Shown here: positions 1-16,054 of the stretch, in pieces | Layout: the number at the start of each line of letters is the position of its first letter | How positions within the stretch are numbered: position 1 is the first letter of the stretch | DNA from: Myxococcales bacterium | GTDB lineage: Bacteria; Myxococcota; Myxococcia; Myxococcales; Myxococcaceae | Assembly: GCA_020846875.1 (NCBI GenBank) | Contig: JADLDB010000121.1 | Span: 1-17,802, forward strand | DNA length: 17,802 nucleotides | Reading direction: 5' to 3' | Notes under the pieces: generated by a model | The model's database searches: none | The model's input: only the letters and a program-made list of their open reading frames with translations | What the model was told of the DNA's origin: nothing | Made by a program: the position numbers and the translations under genes

Positions 1-460
1 GCGCTCCCGTGCGCGCGGGGACGGCTCCTGGCCGTCCGGAGCGCCGTGCGCCTCGCCGTGGCGCCCTCGTGGATTGCGCGCTCCCGTGCGCGCGGGGACG
101 GCTCTCGGCCGTCCGGAGCGGCGTGCGCCTCGCCGTGGCGCCCTCGTGGATTGCGCGCTCCCGTGCGCGCGGGGACGGCTCCGGGCCGTCCGGAGCGGCG
201 TGCGCCTCGCCGTGGCGCTCTCGTGGATTGCGCGCTCCCGTGCGCGCGGGGACGGCTCTCGGCGTCCGGAGCGTCGTGCGCCTCGCCGTGGCGCCCTCGT
301 GGATTGTGCGCTCCCGTGCGCGCGGGGACGGCTCCTGGCCGTCCGGAGCGCCGTGCGCCTCGCCGTGGCGCCCTCGTGGATTGCGCGCTCCCGTGCGCGC
401 GGAGGCGGCTCTCGGCCGTCCGGGACGTCGTGCGCCTCGCCCGGGCCGTGGGGTGTGGCT
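1..460. repeat. Tandem array of a 77-bp direct repeat, at least 6 copies, truncated by the window start. The last copy is degenerate.
   Basis: The motif gcgctcccgtgcgcgcggggacggct recurs at 1, 78, 155, 232, 308 and 385. The period is 77 nt (76 in one copy with a 1-nt deletion). Each unit has an internal 7-bp inverted repeat, ggacggc-N5-gccgtcc. The period is not a multiple of 3. Confidence 0.9.
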
Positions 461-579
461 CGTCGCTGGCCGTAGCGGCTTCACGAGCGGCGCAGGAGCT
501 GTGACACCAGCCGGGCCCTGCGCAGGACATCTTCGTCGGGACGCGCCTGCCGGCGCAGCCGCGGACTCGCGGGAGCGAG

Positions 580-1134
580 TCAGTTCGCGCTGGCGGGCTT
601 GAGCGGCCCGCGCAGGTGCCCGCGGGTCGGGGCAGCCGAGGGAGTCGTCGCCGCACCACCCGTCGTCGCGGGTTCCGCGGCGACCTCCGTACACGCGTCA
701 GGCATGTCCAGCGAGGCCGCCCGCGCGCGAACGAGCGCGGCCCGCCTCGCCAGCAGCGCTTCACGTTCCTCCTGCAGCGCGCGCACCTCGTCCTCGGATG
801 GGCCCGACGCCACCGCGCCGCCGATGATCAACGTGGTGCCCAGGAGCGTGGCGAGGGCCGGCATCAACACCACCAGCGGCACGAACAGGTGCCACTCGCC
901 GCCGTTGAACAACACGATCCCCACCGCCGCCGAGGCCATCCCCACCAGCAGCGACGCCACGCCCAGCCCGATCGCCCCTGTGCCTCCCGAGCTGCGGCTC
1001 AGCTCGAGCAGCTGGCCGTCTACCCGCGCCACGTCGGCCAGCAAGGCTTCTTCGGGCAGCAGCCGCGCCTCGGCCACCGCGGACACCGCGCTCAGCACCA
1101 CCACCAGCATGAGCATCCTCTGGAGTCGTCGCAT
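580..1134 (-). CDS. Small exported or membrane protein (184 aa). It has an N-terminal signal-like sequence MRRLQRMLMLVVVLSAVSAVAEA, two or three hydrophobic helices and an Ala/Arg-rich C-terminal tail. Hypothetical.
   Basis: ORF in the 580..1248 minus frame. The internal ATG at 1132-1134 gives a canonical signal peptide. TM segments are AIGLGVASLLVGMASAAVGIVLF and FVPLVVLMPALATLLGTTLIIGGAVA. The antisense plus-strand ORF is low-complexity Ser/Arg/Ala junk. Confidence 0.6.
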   Translation of the reverse strand: MRRLQRMLMLVVVLSAVSAVAEARLLPEEALLADVARVDGQLLELSRSSGGTGAIGLGVASLLVGMASAAVGIVLFNGGEWHLFVPLVVLMPALATLLGTTLIIGGAVASGPSEDEVRALQEEREALLARRAALVRARAASLDMPDACTEVAAEPATTGGAATTPSAAPTRGHLRGPLKPASAN

Positions 1135-1270
1135 GCCCTGCCAGAGAGCAAGGCCAGGGCCAGGCTCAACCGCGCGGATCGCCTCTGGGCAGGAGGCGCG
1201 AGGTGCGCACCGAGGTGCACAGCGGGTGCGCGTGGCCCACGCTGTCACCCGGGCGACTCAGTCTCCGTGG

Positions 1271-2239
1271 TCAGGGCGCGAGCGACTTGAGCTGCTCCGC
1301 GCGCGACTGCTCCACGTTGCTCTCGTCGCGGTCGCGCTCGCGCTGCCGACGGAGGTGCAGCGCCAGCTCCAGGTCCGACTTGCCAGTCTCGCTGAGGTGC
1401 TCGCGGACCTTGCCCATGAAGTCGTTCACCGACTCCATCACCGTGCTGTAGGACTTGAGGGAGAAGGTGAGGTCGAAGAAGGACACGATCTTGTCCCACA
1501 GCGACTTGCCGGAGCCCGGGGGCGGGGCGTTCTTGTCCAGCACCTGCTCCGCGTTGGCCAGGCGATCCACCTTGAGGCCCGCCTCGTCGATGACGGCGGT
1601 GGCGGCGGCCACGGCGCTGGAGTGCTCCGCGCGCGCCTTGCGCAGCTCCGACGCCAGCTTCTTGCGCGCCTCCAGCTGGACCGGGTCCTTCTTGCTCTCG
1701 GGAGCGAAGGCCTGCGCCTTCTCCGCCAGCGCCTTCACCTTCTGGTCGGCGGACTCGGCGCTGCGCAGGGCGGCCTCGAAGCGCTGCTGCTGCTCAGCCG
1801 TCAGCTCCGGCTTCTTGGCCTGCAGGTCGCGCAGCGAGGCGGTCCGGGTGCGCAGGTGCGAGTACTTCCACTTCCGGTCGAGCTGGTTGACGCGGTCCTG
1901 AATCTCGCCCTTGAGCTGCTCGCGCTGGGCCCTCATCGCCTCGAACTTCGCCTTGCGCTCCTCAGGCGGGAGGCGCCGGAACTCGGTGAGGTCCAGGTGC
2001 CGGTTGCGGCGGGGCGCGTCGGTGCCCCAGAGCGCGCCGGGGTCGGCGGAGCGGGACACATGCGCAGCGGGAGGGAGCGCTCCGGGACGGGACTCGGCCT
2101 GCGCCACGAAGCCGGGCGCGGGCGGGGCGGCGGACAGCCGGGCCTCCACCTCGGCGGCGGGCGAGAGCTGGGTGCGGGAGACCGGCTGCGCCTTCGGAGT
2201 GCTGGTCAGCGAGGGGGAGCGGTCGATCTTCGTCGTCAT
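1271..2239 (-). CDS. Hypothetical coiled-coil protein (322 aa). It has a Pro/Ser-rich N-terminus and a long Lys/Glu/Gln/Ala-rich helical region.
   Basis: It lies in the minus ORF 1271..2623. Start chosen at the ATG at 2237-2239 (MTTKIDRSPS...). Residue composition is protein-like (KAKFEAMRAQREQLKGEIQDRVNQLDRKWKY...SLWDKIVSFFDLTFSLKSY), against low-complexity antisense. I recognise no family. Confidence 0.6.
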   Translation of the reverse strand: MTTKIDRSPSLTSTPKAQPVSRTQLSPAAEVEARLSAAPPAPGFVAQAESRPGALPPAAHVSRSADPGALWGTDAPRRNRHLDLTEFRRLPPEERKAKFEAMRAQREQLKGEIQDRVNQLDRKWKYSHLRTRTASLRDLQAKKPELTAEQQQRFEAALRSAESADQKVKALAEKAQAFAPESKKDPVQLEARKKLASELRKARAEHSSAVAAATAVIDEAGLKVDRLANAEQVLDKNAPPPGSGKSLWDKIVSFFDLTFSLKSYSTVMESVNDFMGKVREHLSETGKSDLELALHLRRQRERDRDESNVEQSRAEQLKSLAP

Positions 2240-2319
2240 GACGGTCGAATCTACGGCACCTGGGGGCCCGCGGTGAAGCTGGGAGCGGACTTCCTGCGAG
2301 CCAGAGAGGTGACGGCTGA

Positions 2320-3033
2320 TCAGCGCAGCACGCCCAAGACCCGCCCGTCCCCGCCCACCGCCACGGCGAGCGGCACCAGCGTCACCCCGTACCGGCGGGC
2401 CAGGTCCTTGCGCTGGGACACGTCCACCGTCACCACCCGCCGCCCGGCGCTGGTCAGCCGGGGGCCGACCACCTGGCACTCGCTGCAGAGGGGATGGGTG
2501 AAGAGCACTACCGTCTCGTCGGCCGGCAGCACGCCCAGCTGCTCCAGGTCGATGCGGTCCAGCACGCCGCCCTTCACCCCGCGCAGCCGCGCCAGCACCC
2601 GGTACACCTCGCAGCCCACGCACAGCCCGGTGGAGACGGCCAGCGTCGCCAGCGCCGCCACCATCAGCCCCAGCACCTGCCCCGCCAGCGCGAAGCCCAG
2701 CCCCCAGAGGAGCGCGGCCGAGAGGAGGAAGACGGCCCCGAGGATGTTGGCGAAGCGCGGAGCGCGGGAGTCCTCCAGCGGGCCTTCCCCCCAGCGGGGC
2801 TGCACCACGCGGAAGTAGAAGACGCAGGCCAGGCAGTACTGGCGGCCGAAGAGCAGGGTGATGGCCAGCTGCGCCCCGAGCAGGCCGAGCAGCGGCCAGA
2901 AGCCGGTCACCACGGCGATGAGCGAGCCCGTCGCCACCACCGCCTGGTTGAAGCGGGGAGCGCGGGCGTCGATGACCAGCAGGTCCTGGTACGGATCAGC
3001 GCGGCGGGTGAAGGGCTGGGGGGCGGTCGTCAT
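2320..3033 (-). CDS. DUF4395-family membrane protein fused to a C-terminal thioredoxin/glutaredoxin-like domain with CxxC motif CSEC (237 aa).
   Basis: The N-terminal ~150 aa match the DUF4395 pattern (RFNQAVVATGSLIAVVTGFWPLLGLLGAQLAITLLFGRQYCLACVFYF...EDSRAPRFANILGAVFLL...TGLCVGCEVYRVLARL). The C-terminus, VVLFTHPLCSECQVVGP...DLARRYGVTLVPLAV, is thioredoxin-fold-like. Start is ATG at 3031-3033. Confidence 0.7.
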   Translation of the reverse strand: MTTAPQPFTRRADPYQDLLVIDARAPRFNQAVVATGSLIAVVTGFWPLLGLLGAQLAITLLFGRQYCLACVFYFRVVQPRWGEGPLEDSRAPRFANILGAVFLLSAALLWGLGFALAGQVLGLMVAALATLAVSTGLCVGCEVYRVLARLRGVKGGVLDRIDLEQLGVLPADETVVLFTHPLCSECQVVGPRLTSAGRRVVTVDVSQRKDLARRYGVTLVPLAVAVGGDGRVLGVLR

Positions 3034-3075
3034 GGCGTCCACCCTAGCGGACGAACTTCCGTTAAACAAGACATT

Positions 3076-3091
3076 ATCCGCTCGAGCGGAT
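3076..3091. promoter_or_regulatory. Perfect 16-bp palindrome ATCCGCTCGAGCGGAT, about 43 bp upstream of the DUF4395-Trx gene start, inside a locally AT-richer stretch. Candidate operator or dimeric transcription-factor site.
   Basis: 3076..3091 is exactly self-complementary. The flanking cgttaaacaagacattat is unusually AT-rich for this genome, which fits a promoter region for the minus-strand gene. Confidence 0.4.
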
Positions 3092-3386
3092 GAGGTGGGG
3101 TCGTCACGGCCCTTCGTCGAGGAGAGGCTCCGGGGGATCGGCTCCGGACGATGGGAGCGGGTAGGCAAACCGATAGAGAACTCCGGCGCTGGTGCCTGCG
3201 TCTGCGACTTCCAGTTGCTGCTCGAAGGCCGGCTCGAAGCAGCCCGGGAGTTGGAACCAAGTCCCGCGTCGTCAGGTGGCCTCGGCGCCGACGCGCACCA
3301 CGGCGTGCGCCACGCCCACTTCCTCGAGAAGTCGCGGCGCTGACCCCCGACGGCGGCGACCTGGGGGGCAGGCGCTGCTGCCGGGC

Positions 3387-4767: not shown

Positions 4768-5730
4768 TCAGCCCGGCTGCGCGAGGGCGCGAAGCGTGAG
4801 CAATAGCTCCTGGAGCAGCTCGTCCGGCCGCTCGTGGAGGGCCGACCAGGTCCAGTGCAGGACGCGGAAGCCGTGCGCGGTGAGCGCGTTGTTGCGCGCC
4901 CGGTCCTTCTCGAAGCTGCCCAGAGAGGCATGCACCGCGTAGCCGTCGGCTTCGATGACGATGGGCGTGCCGGGGACGAGGAAGTCCAGACGGCGCAGGC
5001 GGCCGCCTACCCTGACAACGCGCTGGCGCTCCGCGCGGGGAAGGCCGGCGGTGTCGAGCAGCTCCATGACCCGCGCCTCCAGCTCGCTCTCGGTGGGCCC
5101 GTCGCCGCCGAGGTACTCGTGGACCAGCCTGCGCAGAAAAGCCGTCCCGTGCCGGCGGGGTGCACCGCCCAGCGCCGCCTCCATCCGTTCCAGCGTCACC
5201 CACCGTCGGCGCAGGGCTTCGTCGAAGCAGGCCTGGACGTCGGGCTCGGGCTCCGAGGCGCCGAGGTCGAGCAGGGTGCGCGCGGCGGAGGTCACCCGAA
5301 AGCCGTCGATGCTGACGAGCTCGCGGTGCGAGAGCGGGTCGACGCGATGGAGGATGACGGGCGCGTGCAGCCGAGCGCTTCGGACGAGGGAGAGTTCCAG
5401 CGCTCCCTCGGGGAAGCGGGCGAAGCCCCACAGCGCCGCCGCGGACCGGTGCGACACCGCGAAGTCCCGTTCGGCCCACAGCGACGCAGCCTTGAGCTGC
5501 TGACGCCACGTCTGCGGCGCCCCTTCGACGCGGTAGACCCGCGGAAGGACCCGGACCAACTGTCCGGATTCCACCCGCCGCTCGATCTGCCGGCCGCTGA
5601 GTCCGTGCGCCTCGGCCTGATCTCTCCGAATGACCCCGTACTGCCGTGCCGCGACCCGAAGCGTCGCGGTTTCTGCCCCGTCGACCATCACCGTCCTCCG
5701 GTTCGGGCCCATAGCAGACGGGTCTGACAT
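4768..5730 (-). CDS. DUF559 (Vsr/restriction-endonuclease-like fold) protein with an N-terminal AbiEi_4-like winged-helix region (320 aa).
   Basis: The N-terminus (TATLRVAARQYGVIRRDQAEAHGLSGRQIERRVESGQLVRVLPRVYRV) resembles the AbiEi_4 domain. The C-terminus (RLDFLVPGTPIVIEADGYAVHASLGSFEKDRARNNALTAHGFRVLHWTW) is DUF559-like. Start is ATG at 5728-5730; alternative in-frame Met codons lie 6 and 14 codons downstream. Confidence 0.65.
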   Translation of the reverse strand: MSDPSAMGPNRRTVMVDGAETATLRVAARQYGVIRRDQAEAHGLSGRQIERRVESGQLVRVLPRVYRVEGAPQTWRQQLKAASLWAERDFAVSHRSAAALWGFARFPEGALELSLVRSARLHAPVILHRVDPLSHRELVSIDGFRVTSAARTLLDLGASEPEPDVQACFDEALRRRWVTLERMEAALGGAPRRHGTAFLRRLVHEYLGGDGPTESELEARVMELLDTAGLPRAERQRVVRVGGRLRRLDFLVPGTPIVIEADGYAVHASLGSFEKDRARNNALTAHGFRVLHWTWSALHERPDELLQELLLTLRALAQPG

Positions 5731-13900: not shown

Positions 13901-14747
13901 GGCGGTGGAGGCCTACCGCCAGTGCCTGACGCTCTTCGCCCAGCACGCGATGGGCAGCGGGCCGGTGGCCGACGCTACCGCGCAGCACCTCCTCGACATC
14001 GTCGCGCTGGCCGCGTCCGCGCAGCTGATGATTGGCCCGGCCGAGGTGGTGGGCATGGTGGACTCGGCGCTGGCCCGCGTGCCCGACTCCAAGGCGCCCC
14101 AGGGCCGGGCCGAGGTGCTGCGCCAACGAGCGCTGGCGCTGCAGCGCCTCACCCGCCTCCCCGAGGCCGAAGCCGACCTGCAGAAGGCGGTGTCGCTGGT
14201 GCCGGCCGCGTCCGCGCCCCAGCTGGCCGCCTCGCTGCGCGCCGACCTCGCCAGCGTGCTGGAGGCCAGGGGCGACTTGAACACCGCCGCCAAGCTGCTG
14301 GTGGAAGGCCTGTCCTGGCTGTCCAACCGGAAGCTCGAGGACAAGCACCTGCTCTGGCAGTACTTGAACCAACTGGGGCGCATCCACGTGCGCCTGGGCA
14401 AGCTGGTGGAGGCCGGCGAGTTCTTCGACTCCGCGCGCAACCAGGCGAAGGTGGTGCACTCGGTGCTGGGCGAGTCGCGCGTGGTGTCCAACCTCGCGGT
14501 GCTGGCCGCCAGCAGGAAGGACGTGGGCCAGGCGATGACGATGTTCGACGAGGCGCGCCAGTTGGCGGAGGAGGCGGGCGATCGCCTGGGCGTCTTGCGG
14601 GCCCGCTACAACCGCGCGCGCATGCAGCTCACCGTCCGGCCCGAGGAGGCGAAGGTCGAGCTCAAGGCGGTGGCCGACGAGGCGCGCGCCCTCGGGTGGC
14701 GCGAGGGCGAGGCGCTGGCCGTGCAGGCGATGACGCCCGCGCGCTGA
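10929..14747 (+). CDS. Multidomain Hanks-type Ser/Thr protein kinase (1272 aa). Domains in order: N-terminal zinc ribbon, kinase domain, Pro/Ser-rich linker, degenerate class III nucleotidyl-cyclase homology domain, AAA+/STAND-type ATPase and C-terminal TPR-like repeats.
   Basis: Zinc ribbon: CPSCGTTAPADARFCQRCG. Kinase motifs: GAGGMGKVYRA, HRDLKPSNVLM, DFGIAK, GTPGYMAPE. Cyclase-like region ~12078..12540 (ERRQLTVAYGEV...GNALALAFGLGD...LRVGLHSGAAEDAV) with the metal-binding Asp positions substituted. P-loop GGPGAGKS and Walker-B-like LLILVDDAHLAD. An Ala/Leu-rich helical repeat C-terminus. Confidence 0.9.
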   Translation: MSACPSCGTTAPADARFCQRCGAALPSVEGATDPYIGRVVQNYRIMSVIGAGGMGKVYRAEQVKLKRPVCLKTLLPHLANDPTLVQRFELEGVATAAIRHPNIVQVMDFGQLDDRTLYIAMEYVEGKTLREVLRQESPVTLSRALTIVQQMLSGLAEAHANNIVHRDLKPSNVLMSRLRDGTDLVKLVDFGIAKILGQESEGKQLTRTGMMVGTPGYMAPEQMLGEAVAPTTDLYSVGVIFWELLTGQKLFGRVEEAELARRHLTMPAPSPSSVSRVPLPPEVDEIILRALEKRPERRYQTAMEFARALDALEAGTRLRSSVSGLTPMPSPALSPPQGHPVHAPATGHGTHQSTGFGTLGSLTHLRGAVPEKLLTYTASLATMVGERRQLTVAYGEVATPKGPDVDAAAMRAATSTMLQELQDLGLKLGGVTMRLPGNALALAFGLGDEEDSGVGAAMRFALEGTQRVGEASARLPRPMTLRVGLHSGAAEDAVLAERAFESQGVEELLAVARRLASLAQPGRPLATRTVQKRTAERITWAERPSLAGDDLGPLYEASELRERKVTLEPMVGRAVELDYVNKLLDQLVESRPGGFLFVGGPGAGKSRLLEAAAQRALERRVTVARARGGRFGGASAFDVVRQLVHSLSAPSVADESADSTRTTLAGLQKLHVPQADIERLETLLGSQAQRASSGATAEENQNLDRAVLLELFRTVSKRHRLLILVDDAHLADAPSLELLTDVISRAGGLGVGIVAAARAGSSDVLGQLKRFELGALTRSEVQQLVAGRLPGGPPSAQLVDLVFERSDGNPLFAREIALTLVESGAARQVGTEWQLQGKLDELPDSLAALMSSRLDRLSAQARLLLRFGAIAGRTFPVPLVTAAVDAPLDVHAAISECVHRGILSPAPNQRDAYHFNQALMQDAMVARITPVDRKAVHLRLAEAIERGTTAGAENALEAMARHFQGADQPRKAVKYLKLAADDMRERRAWAAAVEAYRQCLTLFAQHAMGSGPVADATAQHLLDIVALAASAQLMIGPAEVVGMVDSALARVPDSKAPQGRAEVLRQRALALQRLTRLPEAEADLQKAVSLVPAASAPQLAASLRADLASVLEARGDLNTAAKLLVEGLSWLSNRKLEDKHLLWQYLNQLGRIHVRLGKLVEAGEFFDSARNQAKVVHSVLGESRVVSNLAVLAASRKDVGQAMTMFDEARQLAEEAGDRLGVLRARYNRARMQLTVRPEEAKVELKAVADEARALGWREGEALAVQAMTPAR

Positions 14748-14749
14748 CG

Positions 14750-16054
14750 TCAGGCGAGGAGGAAGTGCGGCGGGTTGACGTTGGCCTCTTCCGCGCTCAC
14801 CGAGCCCTCGATGGCGTTGCCGGGCTCCCTGGAGAGGTCCAGCACGTAGTCCACCGGCGCGTCGTTCTCCCGCACCACCTTCACCACCGGGCGGGTGAAG
14901 GCCGCCGCGTCCGCCGGCACCTCCAAAACCACCGCCAGCTGTCCGCCCGTCAGCCGCACCGTGGTGCCCACCGGGTAGAGGCCCACGGTGGCGGTGAAGA
15001 GGTCCACCACGAAGGGGTCGAAGCGCGTCCCCGCCTGCTCGCGCAGCACGCGCAGGGCCTGGTCGGGCGCCATCGGCTTGTGGGGCGGCGAGGGACAGGT
15101 GAGGAGGTCGAAGGCGCACGGCACGGCCAGCAACCTCGCCGCCGCGCCGGGCGTCCACACGCCCCGCTGGTTGGCGGACAGGCCCAGCTCGAAGGCCAGC
15201 GCCGCCTGGAAGAGGGCCTCGTCGGAGATGGGCGGCGCGGACAACCGCATCAGCGTGCGCCGGGCCACCGAGGTGGCGTCGTGCGCGCCGGGCTCCGCGC
15301 GGCCGATGTCGTGCACCAGCGCCGCCACCGCGAGGTCCAGCGTCACCGCGCGGGTCAGCCTCAGCTTCCGCGCCATCAGCAGCGTCAGCGCCGCCACCGT
15401 GGAGAGGTGGAAGTGCAGCGCGCCCTGGAAGTTGGGGAAGCGCGTCAGGCCGGAGAGGAGCGACTCGTAGCCCAGGGACGCGTCGGCCATGCCCTGCACC
15501 GCCTTGCGCAGGTTGGGGCCGCGGAAGCGGGCGCCCTTGTGCGCGCGGTCCAGCGACTGGTGCGCCACCACCGTCACCCGGGCGAAGGCGCGCAGCACGT
15601 TCTGCCGGGCGTCGATGGTGAACCCCGCGGCGCCGTCCAGCACGCCCTCCAGCGCTCGCAGCCGCACCCGCCCGTTGCTGCTCTTCACCGTGCCCTGCGG
15701 CGTCTGGGTGCGCCACGCGGCCTGGAAGGCGGAAAGGAAGTCGCGCAGCTCCTCTTCGTGCAGGTCCTGCGGCCAGGTCAGCTCGTGCAGGCCCAGCTTG
15801 CCGAAGGCCTTCCGCAGCGCCTCTGCCGCGTCGTACACGTGCTGGGCCAGCTTCACCGCGGTGTTGTTGACGAAGACGGTTTCGGCGAACACCACCACCG
15901 CCACGTCCGTCTCCTGCTGCTTGAGCAGCTCCATCAAGGCCCCCACCGGCTGGGTGAAGATGGCGTTGTTGATGGGGTGCTGCTGCGCGAGGCGCAGGAT
16001 GCGCGCGGTCGCCACCAGGAGGTCCGCCTGGGTGTTGGTGGTGGGGGTGCTCAT
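14750..16054 (-). CDS. HD-domain protein (HD-GYP-like metal-dependent phosphohydrolase superfamily), 434 aa. The HHE/GYP motifs are not evident.
   Basis: An H...HD metal-binding dyad is present (ALHFHLSTVAA...LVHDIGRAE). Overall length and layout resemble myxobacterial HD-GYP-type proteins, but I cannot find a GYP motif. Clean ORF. Start ATG overlaps the upstream gene in ATGA. Confidence 0.6.
   Translation of the reverse strand: MSTPTTNTQADLLVATARILRLAQQHPINNAIFTQPVGALMELLKQQETDVAVVVFAETVFVNNTAVKLAQHVYDAAEALRKAFGKLGLHELTWPQDLHEEELRDFLSAFQAAWRTQTPQGTVKSSNGRVRLRALEGVLDGAAGFTIDARQNVLRAFARVTVVAHQSLDRAHKGARFRGPNLRKAVQGMADASLGYESLLSGLTRFPNFQGALHFHLSTVAALTLLMARKLRLTRAVTLDLAVAALVHDIGRAEPGAHDATSVARRTLMRLSAPPISDEALFQAALAFELGLSANQRGVWTPGAAARLLAVPCAFDLLTCPSPPHKPMAPDQALRVLREQAGTRFDPFVVDLFTATVGLYPVGTTVRLTGGQLAVVLEVPADAAAFTRPVVKVVRENDAPVDYVLDLSREPGNAIEGSVSAEEANVNPPHFLLA

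Follow-up and report, generated by a model that had tools for sequence, protein, structure and literature searches.

What is the short tandem repeat with which contig JADLDB010000121.1 of the Myxococcales bacterium assembly GCA_020846875.1 begins, where did it come from, and does it do anything? The window analysed here, a stretch of 17,802 nucleotides, opens with head-to-tail copies of a 77-bp unit that can form a hairpin. An initial annotation, made from the sequence alone, had proposed that this array might be a structured RNA repeat, a terminator or a satellite family. Our analysis favours another answer, which we consider probable: the array would be a young, lineage-specific, non-coding intergenic minisatellite, born at the junction of an inversion and probably neutral.

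A 77-bp tandem array at one intergenic locus

The head-to-tail organization recognized in the initial annotation is genuine. Tandem Repeats Finder (TRF) delimits window 1–441 as a period-77 array (5.7 copies, 93% matches, score 763, with 0 indels at the TRF level), and slicing and alignment of the units, as well as a unit profile searched with nhmmer, lead to the same picture. Within the 17.8-kb window, the profile matches six places of the array only, with E values from 1e-21 to 5e-13. Chance cannot be the source of such an array. Its extent had been overestimated, since it ends at 441 and not at 460, and the count of at least six copies has to be read as five full units followed by a degenerate sixth of 57 nt; the 76-bp unit that had been noticed among them is real (Table 1). 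The array has a GC content of 80%, as against 72% for the window overall, and only 17 A residues in 441 nt.

Table 1. Positions of the array, its units and hairpins, and the adjacent features in the window.
Feature	Position	Strand	Basis or remark
77-bp tandem array	1–441	.	TRF, unit slicing/alignment, nhmmer, composition; runs off the contig end
Full units 1–5	1–77, 78–154, 155–231, 232–307 (76 bp), 308–384		Slicing and alignment
Unit 6, degenerate edge unit of 57 nt	385–441		In register only up to 441
Intact inverted repeat GGACGGC-N5-GCCGTCC, unit 1	19–37	.	Pattern search; centroid hairpin of single-unit folds
Same inverted repeat, intact, units 2, 3 and 5	96–114, 173–191, 326–344		Pattern search
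Defective hairpin, unit 4	250–267		GGACGGC-TCTCG-GCGTCC, one C deleted from the 3′ arm; alignment, pair counts
Defective hairpin, edge unit 6	403–421		5′ arm AGGCGGC; one mismatch and one G-T, uncompensated
Proximal 12-mer CCCGGGCCGTGG	440–451		Edge comparison; distal copy at the L057 edge
Unique non-coding spacer, g176 stop to array	442–579	-	No significant unit similarity; sister homology ends at 573
g176, predicted membrane protein of 176 aa	580–1110	-	Gene calls in independent contigs, translation
g322, hypothetical protein of 322 aa, MCC6336718.1 (IT380_22345)	1271–2239	-	

Interior units are 95–100% identical and the edge units at both ends of the array are degenerate, a combination of decayed edges and identical interior that is the usual signature of homogenization by slippage or unequal exchange. 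The two variable places reported previously were confirmed by the alignment: the 5-nt loop of the hairpin occurs as TCCTG, TCTCG or TCCGG, and unit position 44 carries C, G or T. The differences are not confined to these places, as had been thought, given that there are further changes in the stem as well as singletons (C65T in unit 3 and C77T in unit 4). Three alleles each are seen at the loop (unit positions 28–29) and at position 44, for example at window 28–29, 44, 105–106 and 121. Each unit also holds an alternating purine–pyrimidine run, GTGCGCGCG (window 9–17 and equivalent positions), which is prone to adopt the Z-DNA form, and a second self-complementary element, GCGCGC-N6-GCGCGC, spans the unit junction. 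Unit 1 and unit 5 are the same in sequence, and window 1–95 repeats window 308–402; the copy number and the order of the units in the contig are therefore minimum estimates.

The array is truncated, as had been stated, the edge of the window being here the end of a contig of the metagenome-assembled genome (MAG): the window is the entire 17,802-bp contig, and the array therefore lies at a contig end. On the inner side, the upstream neighbour of the array is g176, transcribed in the same direction. Independent assemblies call this gene at 580–1110, a product of 176 aa, instead of the 580–1134 given initially, and the gap between its 3′ end and the array, previously put at about 120 bp, amounts to 138 nt now that the array is seen to end at 441.

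The far edge was found on L057, a Logan contig from run SRR24928190. The same run also carries the window genes, so that L057 can be taken to come from the same organism as the window. L057 also encodes a kinase, P0019 (MCC6336494.1), an ortholog found via the kinase of the relative L012; to judge by an NCBI name and source labels of the same kind, MCC6336494.1 probably belongs to the same MAG as g322. The first 64 nt of L057 are unit sequence oriented as on the minus strand of the window: 41 nt from a variant unit, joined head to tail to 23 nt of a partial one. They are followed by 45 unique nt and then by the ATG of a 401-aa gene, g401 (L057 110–1315). Aligned along the entire length, its product and that of the 405-aa gene next to g322 in L012 are 66% identical (the proteins start MFLEVTAVPD and MYLEVTAVPD, respectively). 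Read along the minus strand, the order is thus g322, g176 with its stop codon, 138 nt, the array, 45 nt and the start codon of g401. Synteny and the consistent orientation of the units suggest that the two edges belong to one array, which would then measure at least 541 nt (23 + 77 + 441), or about seven units (seven units plus a 3-nt overlap, GCC, minus one deleted base). The 12-mer CCCGGGCCGTGG stands at both edges of the array, exact at 12 of 12 positions and, when extended, at 21 of 24. Beyond this 12-mer, no significant similarity to decayed units was found in the flanks.

A hexamer, TA(C/G)AC(T/G), is located 10–11 nt before the ATG in L057, L012 and L010, that is, in three lineages. It may be the -10 element of a nearly leaderless g401 mRNA, in which case the array would end about 6 nt upstream of the corresponding -35 position.

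An inversion at the same junction

Comparison with outgroup relatives gives a clue as to how the array came to lie between these two genes. In L012, the order is g401 (-), 119 nt, g322 (+), the g176 homologue (+) and a DUF4395 gene (-), and in outgroup relatives the transcription of g322 leads away from the 401/405-aa gene, in the direction of DUF4395. The window reads g176 (-), g322 (-), DUF4395 (-); the two-gene block g322–g176 (580–2239; compare L012 6277–7903) is accordingly inverted relative to the outgroup. A conserved stretch of ~20 nt immediately upstream of the g322 start has stayed with that gene, just as the -10-like hexamer and the ATG have stayed with g401. The g322–g176 block has thus been inverted in this lineage, and the array occupies precisely the junction that g176 and g401 newly form. 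The locus retains no long inverted repeats able to mediate such an inversion, and the homologous intergenic regions of L010 and L012 contain nothing above shuffled sequence that could pass for an ancestor of the unit.

A sister lineage is represented by contig BTUN01000020.1 of MAG GCA_045863355.1 and by Logan contigs, one of them from SRR24928202 (24 contigs were read; its protein is listed in 51 index blocks). It is 97.6–97.8% identical to window 573–3155 and 95.7% identical to L057 1303–5926, and it has the same inversion. In place of the spacer, the array and g401, it carries 1.14 kb of unrelated DNA of lower GC content, with an open reading frame (ORF) of 273–299 aa on the opposite strand; this segment shows neither a tandem repeat nor a match to the unit. 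Homology is lost 7 nt past the g176 stop codon, at 573, and is regained 13 nt ahead of the stop codon of g401. The unit was not matched either in the more distant relatives L009, L010/L011, L012, L013 and L014/L015. In the L010 lineage (L010 9074–9867, and also L011), the g401 ortholog appears split into ORFs of 51 and 166 aa, recovered as overlapping tblastn pieces in different frames, and is probably a frameshifted pseudogene.

Wider searches were equally negative. A 23-mer of all six units gave one chance match, in a coding region of Jiangella, among 185,579 GTDB representative genomes, and none in JGI metagenomes or in IMG/VR. An 18-mer across the unit junction gave 41 hits in JGI metagenomes (40 loci with one hit, one with two), all with unrelated flanks. 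Neither the window nor the 63 fetched loci nor the scanned collections showed a second locus, and the proposal of a satellite family is therefore not supported.

Origin of the array

The following scenario would account for these observations. The inversion of the g322–g176 block would have split the ancestral 119-nt divergent region between g401 and g322, and would have put the 3′ end of g176 beside the core promoter of g401. At the new junction, a segment of ~77–83 bp bracketed by CCCGGGCCGTGG may then have been duplicated via replication slippage or unequal recombination, and the same process would have amplified and homogenized the units, leaving a near-identical interior and decayed edges. 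The GC-rich hairpin would be a by-product of the base composition; it may favour slippage, but would not be a selected structure. The array itself would probably have no dedicated function; a plausible side effect is that it altered the DNA upstream of the -35 element of the g401 promoter. The only effect of the array that can be demonstrated is the breakage of short-read assemblies.

Several points weigh against this scenario. Neutrality is beyond proof from sequence, and the nearness of the array to the putative promoter makes a cis-regulatory effect on g401 quite possible. The loop and position 44 have three alleles each in a unit that is otherwise near-invariant, which is not what simple neutral decay predicts; these sites look like mutational hot spots or collapsed strain variation. 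Then, no sequence bridges the gap between the two edges of the array. The sister lineage lacks the whole segment made up of spacer, array and g401 and is hence silent on copy-number dynamics. Finally, since the scans covered the window, the 63 fetched loci and public collections, the same MAG may hold further copies.

Does the hairpin betray a function?

According to the initial annotation, every unit carries a 7-bp stem, GGACGGC-N5-GCCGTCC, and the variation between units might preserve it. The stem is in fact intact in units 1, 2, 3 and 5 and damaged in units 4 and 6, unit 4 being 76 bp long because one C has been lost from the 3′ arm of its stem. In the six-unit alignment, five of the seven stem pairs are invariant, compensatory changes are absent from all seven, and those changes that do affect the stem make it weaker, the reverse of structure-preserving variation. 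The covariation analysis of the stem that had been recommended was run here on the six units; six near-identical copies give it little power, and there were no informative pairs. Another recommended analysis, folding of one unit, gave energies no better than those of shuffled sequence: z-scores against dinucleotide shuffles ranged from -0.38 to +1.43 for single units and for the 600-nt region, on both strands. Of dinucleotide-shuffled units, 14.8% contain a perfect stem of 7 bp or more that encloses a loop of 3–8 nt. Two of the six variable columns fall in the 5-nt loop (p ~0.046, for a hypothesis picked post hoc). We thus find no evidence that the hairpin is anything else than a by-product of sequence with 80% GC; a structure is unsupported, yet unrefuted.

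Among the alternatives to the neutral minisatellite, the one that survives best, though we consider it unlikely, is that of a cis-regulatory operator array. The 19-bp palindrome (7-N5-7) of each unit would be bound by a dimeric protein and would set the activity of the g401 promoter, maybe in a manner tuned by copy number. The 7-N5-7 layout is indeed typical of operators for dimeric proteins, the window contains five matches to the palindrome where 0.67 are expected, and the array ends about 6 nt upstream of the putative -35 element of a promoter whose -10-like hexamer is conserved. Series of direct repeats in which every copy has its own binding site, in the form of an inverted repeat, are moreover an established design; the F-plasmid centromere sopC is an example (PMC3177203). 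On the other hand, all the palindrome matches are within the array. None was found in the remaining 17.3 kb of the window, even with two mismatches allowed, or in the 62 other loci, and the exact palindrome is absent from the 63 fetched loci if the array's own far edge is set aside. No gene for a DNA-binding protein was recognized alongside. The palindrome is damaged, without compensation, in two of the six window units, and 15% of shuffled units hold a 7-bp stem anyway. In addition, the 77-bp spacing corresponds to 7.3 helical turns, which puts the sites out of phase, and outgroup lineages that keep g401 lack the array, so that g401 must be expressed without it elsewhere.

A role at the RNA level appears improbable. 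The array would be transcribed by read-through from g322–g176 or as a leader of g401, and its hairpins would serve as terminators, insulators or barriers to RNases, in the manner of REP/BIME or BOX elements. The units are oriented as both flanking genes are, so that read-through would indeed transcribe them, and the GGACGGC/GCCGUCC hairpin, at about -13 to -15 kcal/mol, is the sole element kept in centroid folds. For high-GC bacteria, terminators that lack a U-tract have been proposed. However, the stem is not followed by a T-run on either strand, and no terminator-like site was predicted in window 1–1400, which does not favour the terminator suggested initially; the promoter/terminator scan gave no promoter-like site, and no tRNA or tmRNA was found. 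The fold energies equal those of shuffled sequence, two stems are broken, compensatory changes are nil, and in the collections scanned the repeat was seen at a single locus, not as a dispersed family. A search of Rfam with window 1–1400 at E values up to 10 returned nothing in the array, and two chance matches outside it. The earlier idea of a structured RNA repeat is not sustained by these data.

It is tempting to speculate that the array might be a newly evolved, copy-number-variable regulatory cassette, whose palindromes would bind a putative regulator or form non-B DNA (cruciforms, or Z-DNA at GTGCGCGCG), but we would give this idea only a small chance of being correct. If it were true, gain and loss of repeats by slippage would switch or tune g401 in this lineage, and the locus would constitute a contingency locus made from a long-unit repeat in a myxobacterium, upstream of the near-leaderless g401 promoter.

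Assembly artefact, coding repeat and CRISPR relic

The suspicion that the repeats had caused a break in the contig proved justified: the window is a whole contig, and independent Logan contigs stop at the array. Those from SRR24928190 and SRR24928191 both have window 412 as their first base, 30 nt ahead of the place (441/442) where the array gives way to unique sequence, and that from SRR24928211 begins at window 521. Logan assemblies use k=31. A k=31 unitig of the unique flank would have to start at 412 if the 31-mer ending at 441 recurs inside the array. This implies that edge-type unit sequence (GGGACGTCGTG...) is also present elsewhere in the array in those samples. On either side, Logan contigs begin 30 nt before the first base that is distinct from the repeat, 442 in one case and the unit-variant base at L057:31 in the other. 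The array thus explains the ends of the MAG contig and of at least four independent short-read contigs, and it allows two contigs to be linked, the window (at its start) and the one with MCC6336494.1.

It is very improbable that the array is itself an artefact, in which a short repeat or strain variation was unrolled into a false multi-copy array at the contig end. The source is indeed the end of a MAG contig, the identity of unit 1 with unit 5 and of 1–95 with 308–402 resembles a loop in a de Bruijn graph, and the contig starts directly after the variable position 77. Yet Logan assemblies of other runs stop exactly k-1 = 30 nt before 441/442, as they would at a true repeat, L057 independently shows units joined head to tail and adds another variant of the unit, and the window displays five different unit variants in a defined order. 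Doubt attaches only to the exact copy number and the unit order.

A protein-coding repeat, in which a super-period of 231 nt (77 aa) would be read via all three frames, can hardly be entertained: all six frames are open through the array, as one would expect of a sequence that has 80% GC and just 17 A among its 441 nt, but the period is not a multiple of 3, both flanks are non-coding, and the array and its 138-nt flank lack the codon-position signature (GC content at third and second positions, GC3/GC2) that is strong in the neighbouring genes. Nor is there any protein similar to the translation of either strand; comparison of the translated plus strand with 5.8 billion proteins, and of the minus strand with 1.84 billion representatives, gave 0 matches. 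These searches also put gene callers to use as a detector of the repeat. The initial annotation had thus been right in setting aside a peptide repeat.

It had been right, too, in setting aside clustered regularly interspaced short palindromic repeats (CRISPR), and a CRISPR relic, a single repeat-plus-spacer unit duplicated in tandem, is scarcely credible: the 3′ part of type I-C CRISPR repeats is weakly matched by CGTGGATTG (window 67–75 and equivalents), which follows a small stem, GCGCC-N7-GGCGC, but the resemblance is short and was noticed post hoc, shuffles equalled its score in 24 of 300 and 3 of 300 cases for two consensus sequences, unique spacers are absent, no cas genes were recognized in the window or in L057, and Rfam gave no CRISPR-DR match at E values up to 10.

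Relation to known repeat elements

On the best reading, the array belongs with the bacterial intergenic minisatellites, or loci with a variable number of tandem repeats (VNTR); we found nothing on myxobacterial minisatellites in the literature. Like other members of this class, it consists of a head-to-tail unit in the range of ~10–100 bp and is non-coding, with the stop codon of g176 on one side and the start codon of g401 on the other.

The nearest counterparts are the mycobacterial minisatellites known as mycobacterial interspersed repetitive units (MIRU) and exact tandem repeats (ETR). Their units of 40–100 bp are intergenic and stand in one orientation relative to adjacent transcription, and one of them has a 77-bp unit present in 1–7 copies, a number in which closely related strains differ (PMC5056196, PMC2453075). 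As a family, MIRUs are dispersed, with 41 loci in H37Rv; they are described as having no obvious palindromes and as containing small ORFs in their units (PMC5056196). The array is similar to MIRU/ETR loci in that its repeats are direct, intergenic, in one orientation and few in number, within a high-GC genome; it shares even the unit length with ETR-D (77 bp), and close lineages differ at the locus, here by the absence of the whole spacer–array–g401 segment from the sister. In contrast to MIRU, each of its intact units carries a 7-bp inverted repeat, it has been seen at one locus only, and it belongs to a myxobacterium, so that the array is set apart from MIRU by description. The small ORFs of MIRU overlap the stop and start codons of the neighbouring genes, whereas gaps of 138 nt and 45 nt separate the array from its two neighbours.

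Other families of elements also have traits in common with the array. In the sopC centromere of the F plasmid, a direct repeat of 43 bp occurs 12 times, and SopB binds the 16-bp inverted repeat that every copy contains (PMC3177203). The array likewise combines tandem direct repeats with one short inverted repeat in each. It differs from sopC in its chromosomal context, which is syntenic with other Myxococcota MAGs, and in the absence of parA/parB-like genes from the 17.8-kb window and from 6.2 kb on the other side; a binding protein is known for sopC only. As in REP/BIME, BOX and ERIC elements, imperfect GC-rich palindromes are found between genes, and the boxB modules of BOX elements can also repeat in tandem. 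These families, however, occupy tens to hundreds of loci and are conserved within species, while the unit was seen at one locus only and is absent from a sister that is ~97.7% identical in this region. A regular period with a small stem-loop in each is also a trait of CRISPR, but here the whole 77-bp period is repeated (93–100% identity), with no unique spacers and no cas genes recognized nearby.

Neighbouring genes

Family searches gave nothing above cut-offs for g176 (Pfam, NCBIfam), g322, g401 or the 299-aa ORF of the sister lineage. A weak match of g401 to TIGR02996, described as 'repeat-companion', lies below the cut-off (residues 118–145), and the ends of the protein look FHA-like by eye.

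In the sister lineage, the region on the other side of 3155 encodes tetratricopeptide repeat (TPR) and beta-eliminating-lyase proteins, as opposed to the g93, peroxiredoxin and Major Vault Protein (MVP) genes of the window. The 2.6-kb block 573–3155 (DUF4395–g322–g176), the only part of the window shared with the sister, is thus an island between two rearrangement points (L058 6935–8078; L061, L062, L063).

Farther away from the array, window 5922–8072 (+) encodes a 716-aa protein with an MVP shoulder domain and a Vault_3 repeat. This vault-like protein is unusually conserved, being 85–90% identical in relatives whose g322 is only 56–63% identical. The product of window 4768–5688 (-) combines an N-terminal AbiEi_4 antitoxin-like domain with a C-terminal endonuclease-like domain (DUF559/REase_MTES_1575) and is found at the same place in L010. 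A frame of 2507 aa at window 8193–15716 (-), antisense to glycoside hydrolase family 1 (GH1) and Ser/Thr-kinase genes, was considered and rejected as a high-GC artefact, because the GC content by codon position supports the plus-strand genes 9339–10850 and 10929–14747.

Significance

As it stands, the array is an ordinary feature, and it would acquire a modest interest if it modulates the g401 promoter. It provides a presence/absence marker, probably variable in copy number too, with which this uncultured Myxococcota lineage can be tracked across samples. It is also a small and clear case of a minisatellite that would have been born where an inversion brought two genes together, with a short direct repeat at both ends and, close by, a promoter severed from its ancestral upstream region.

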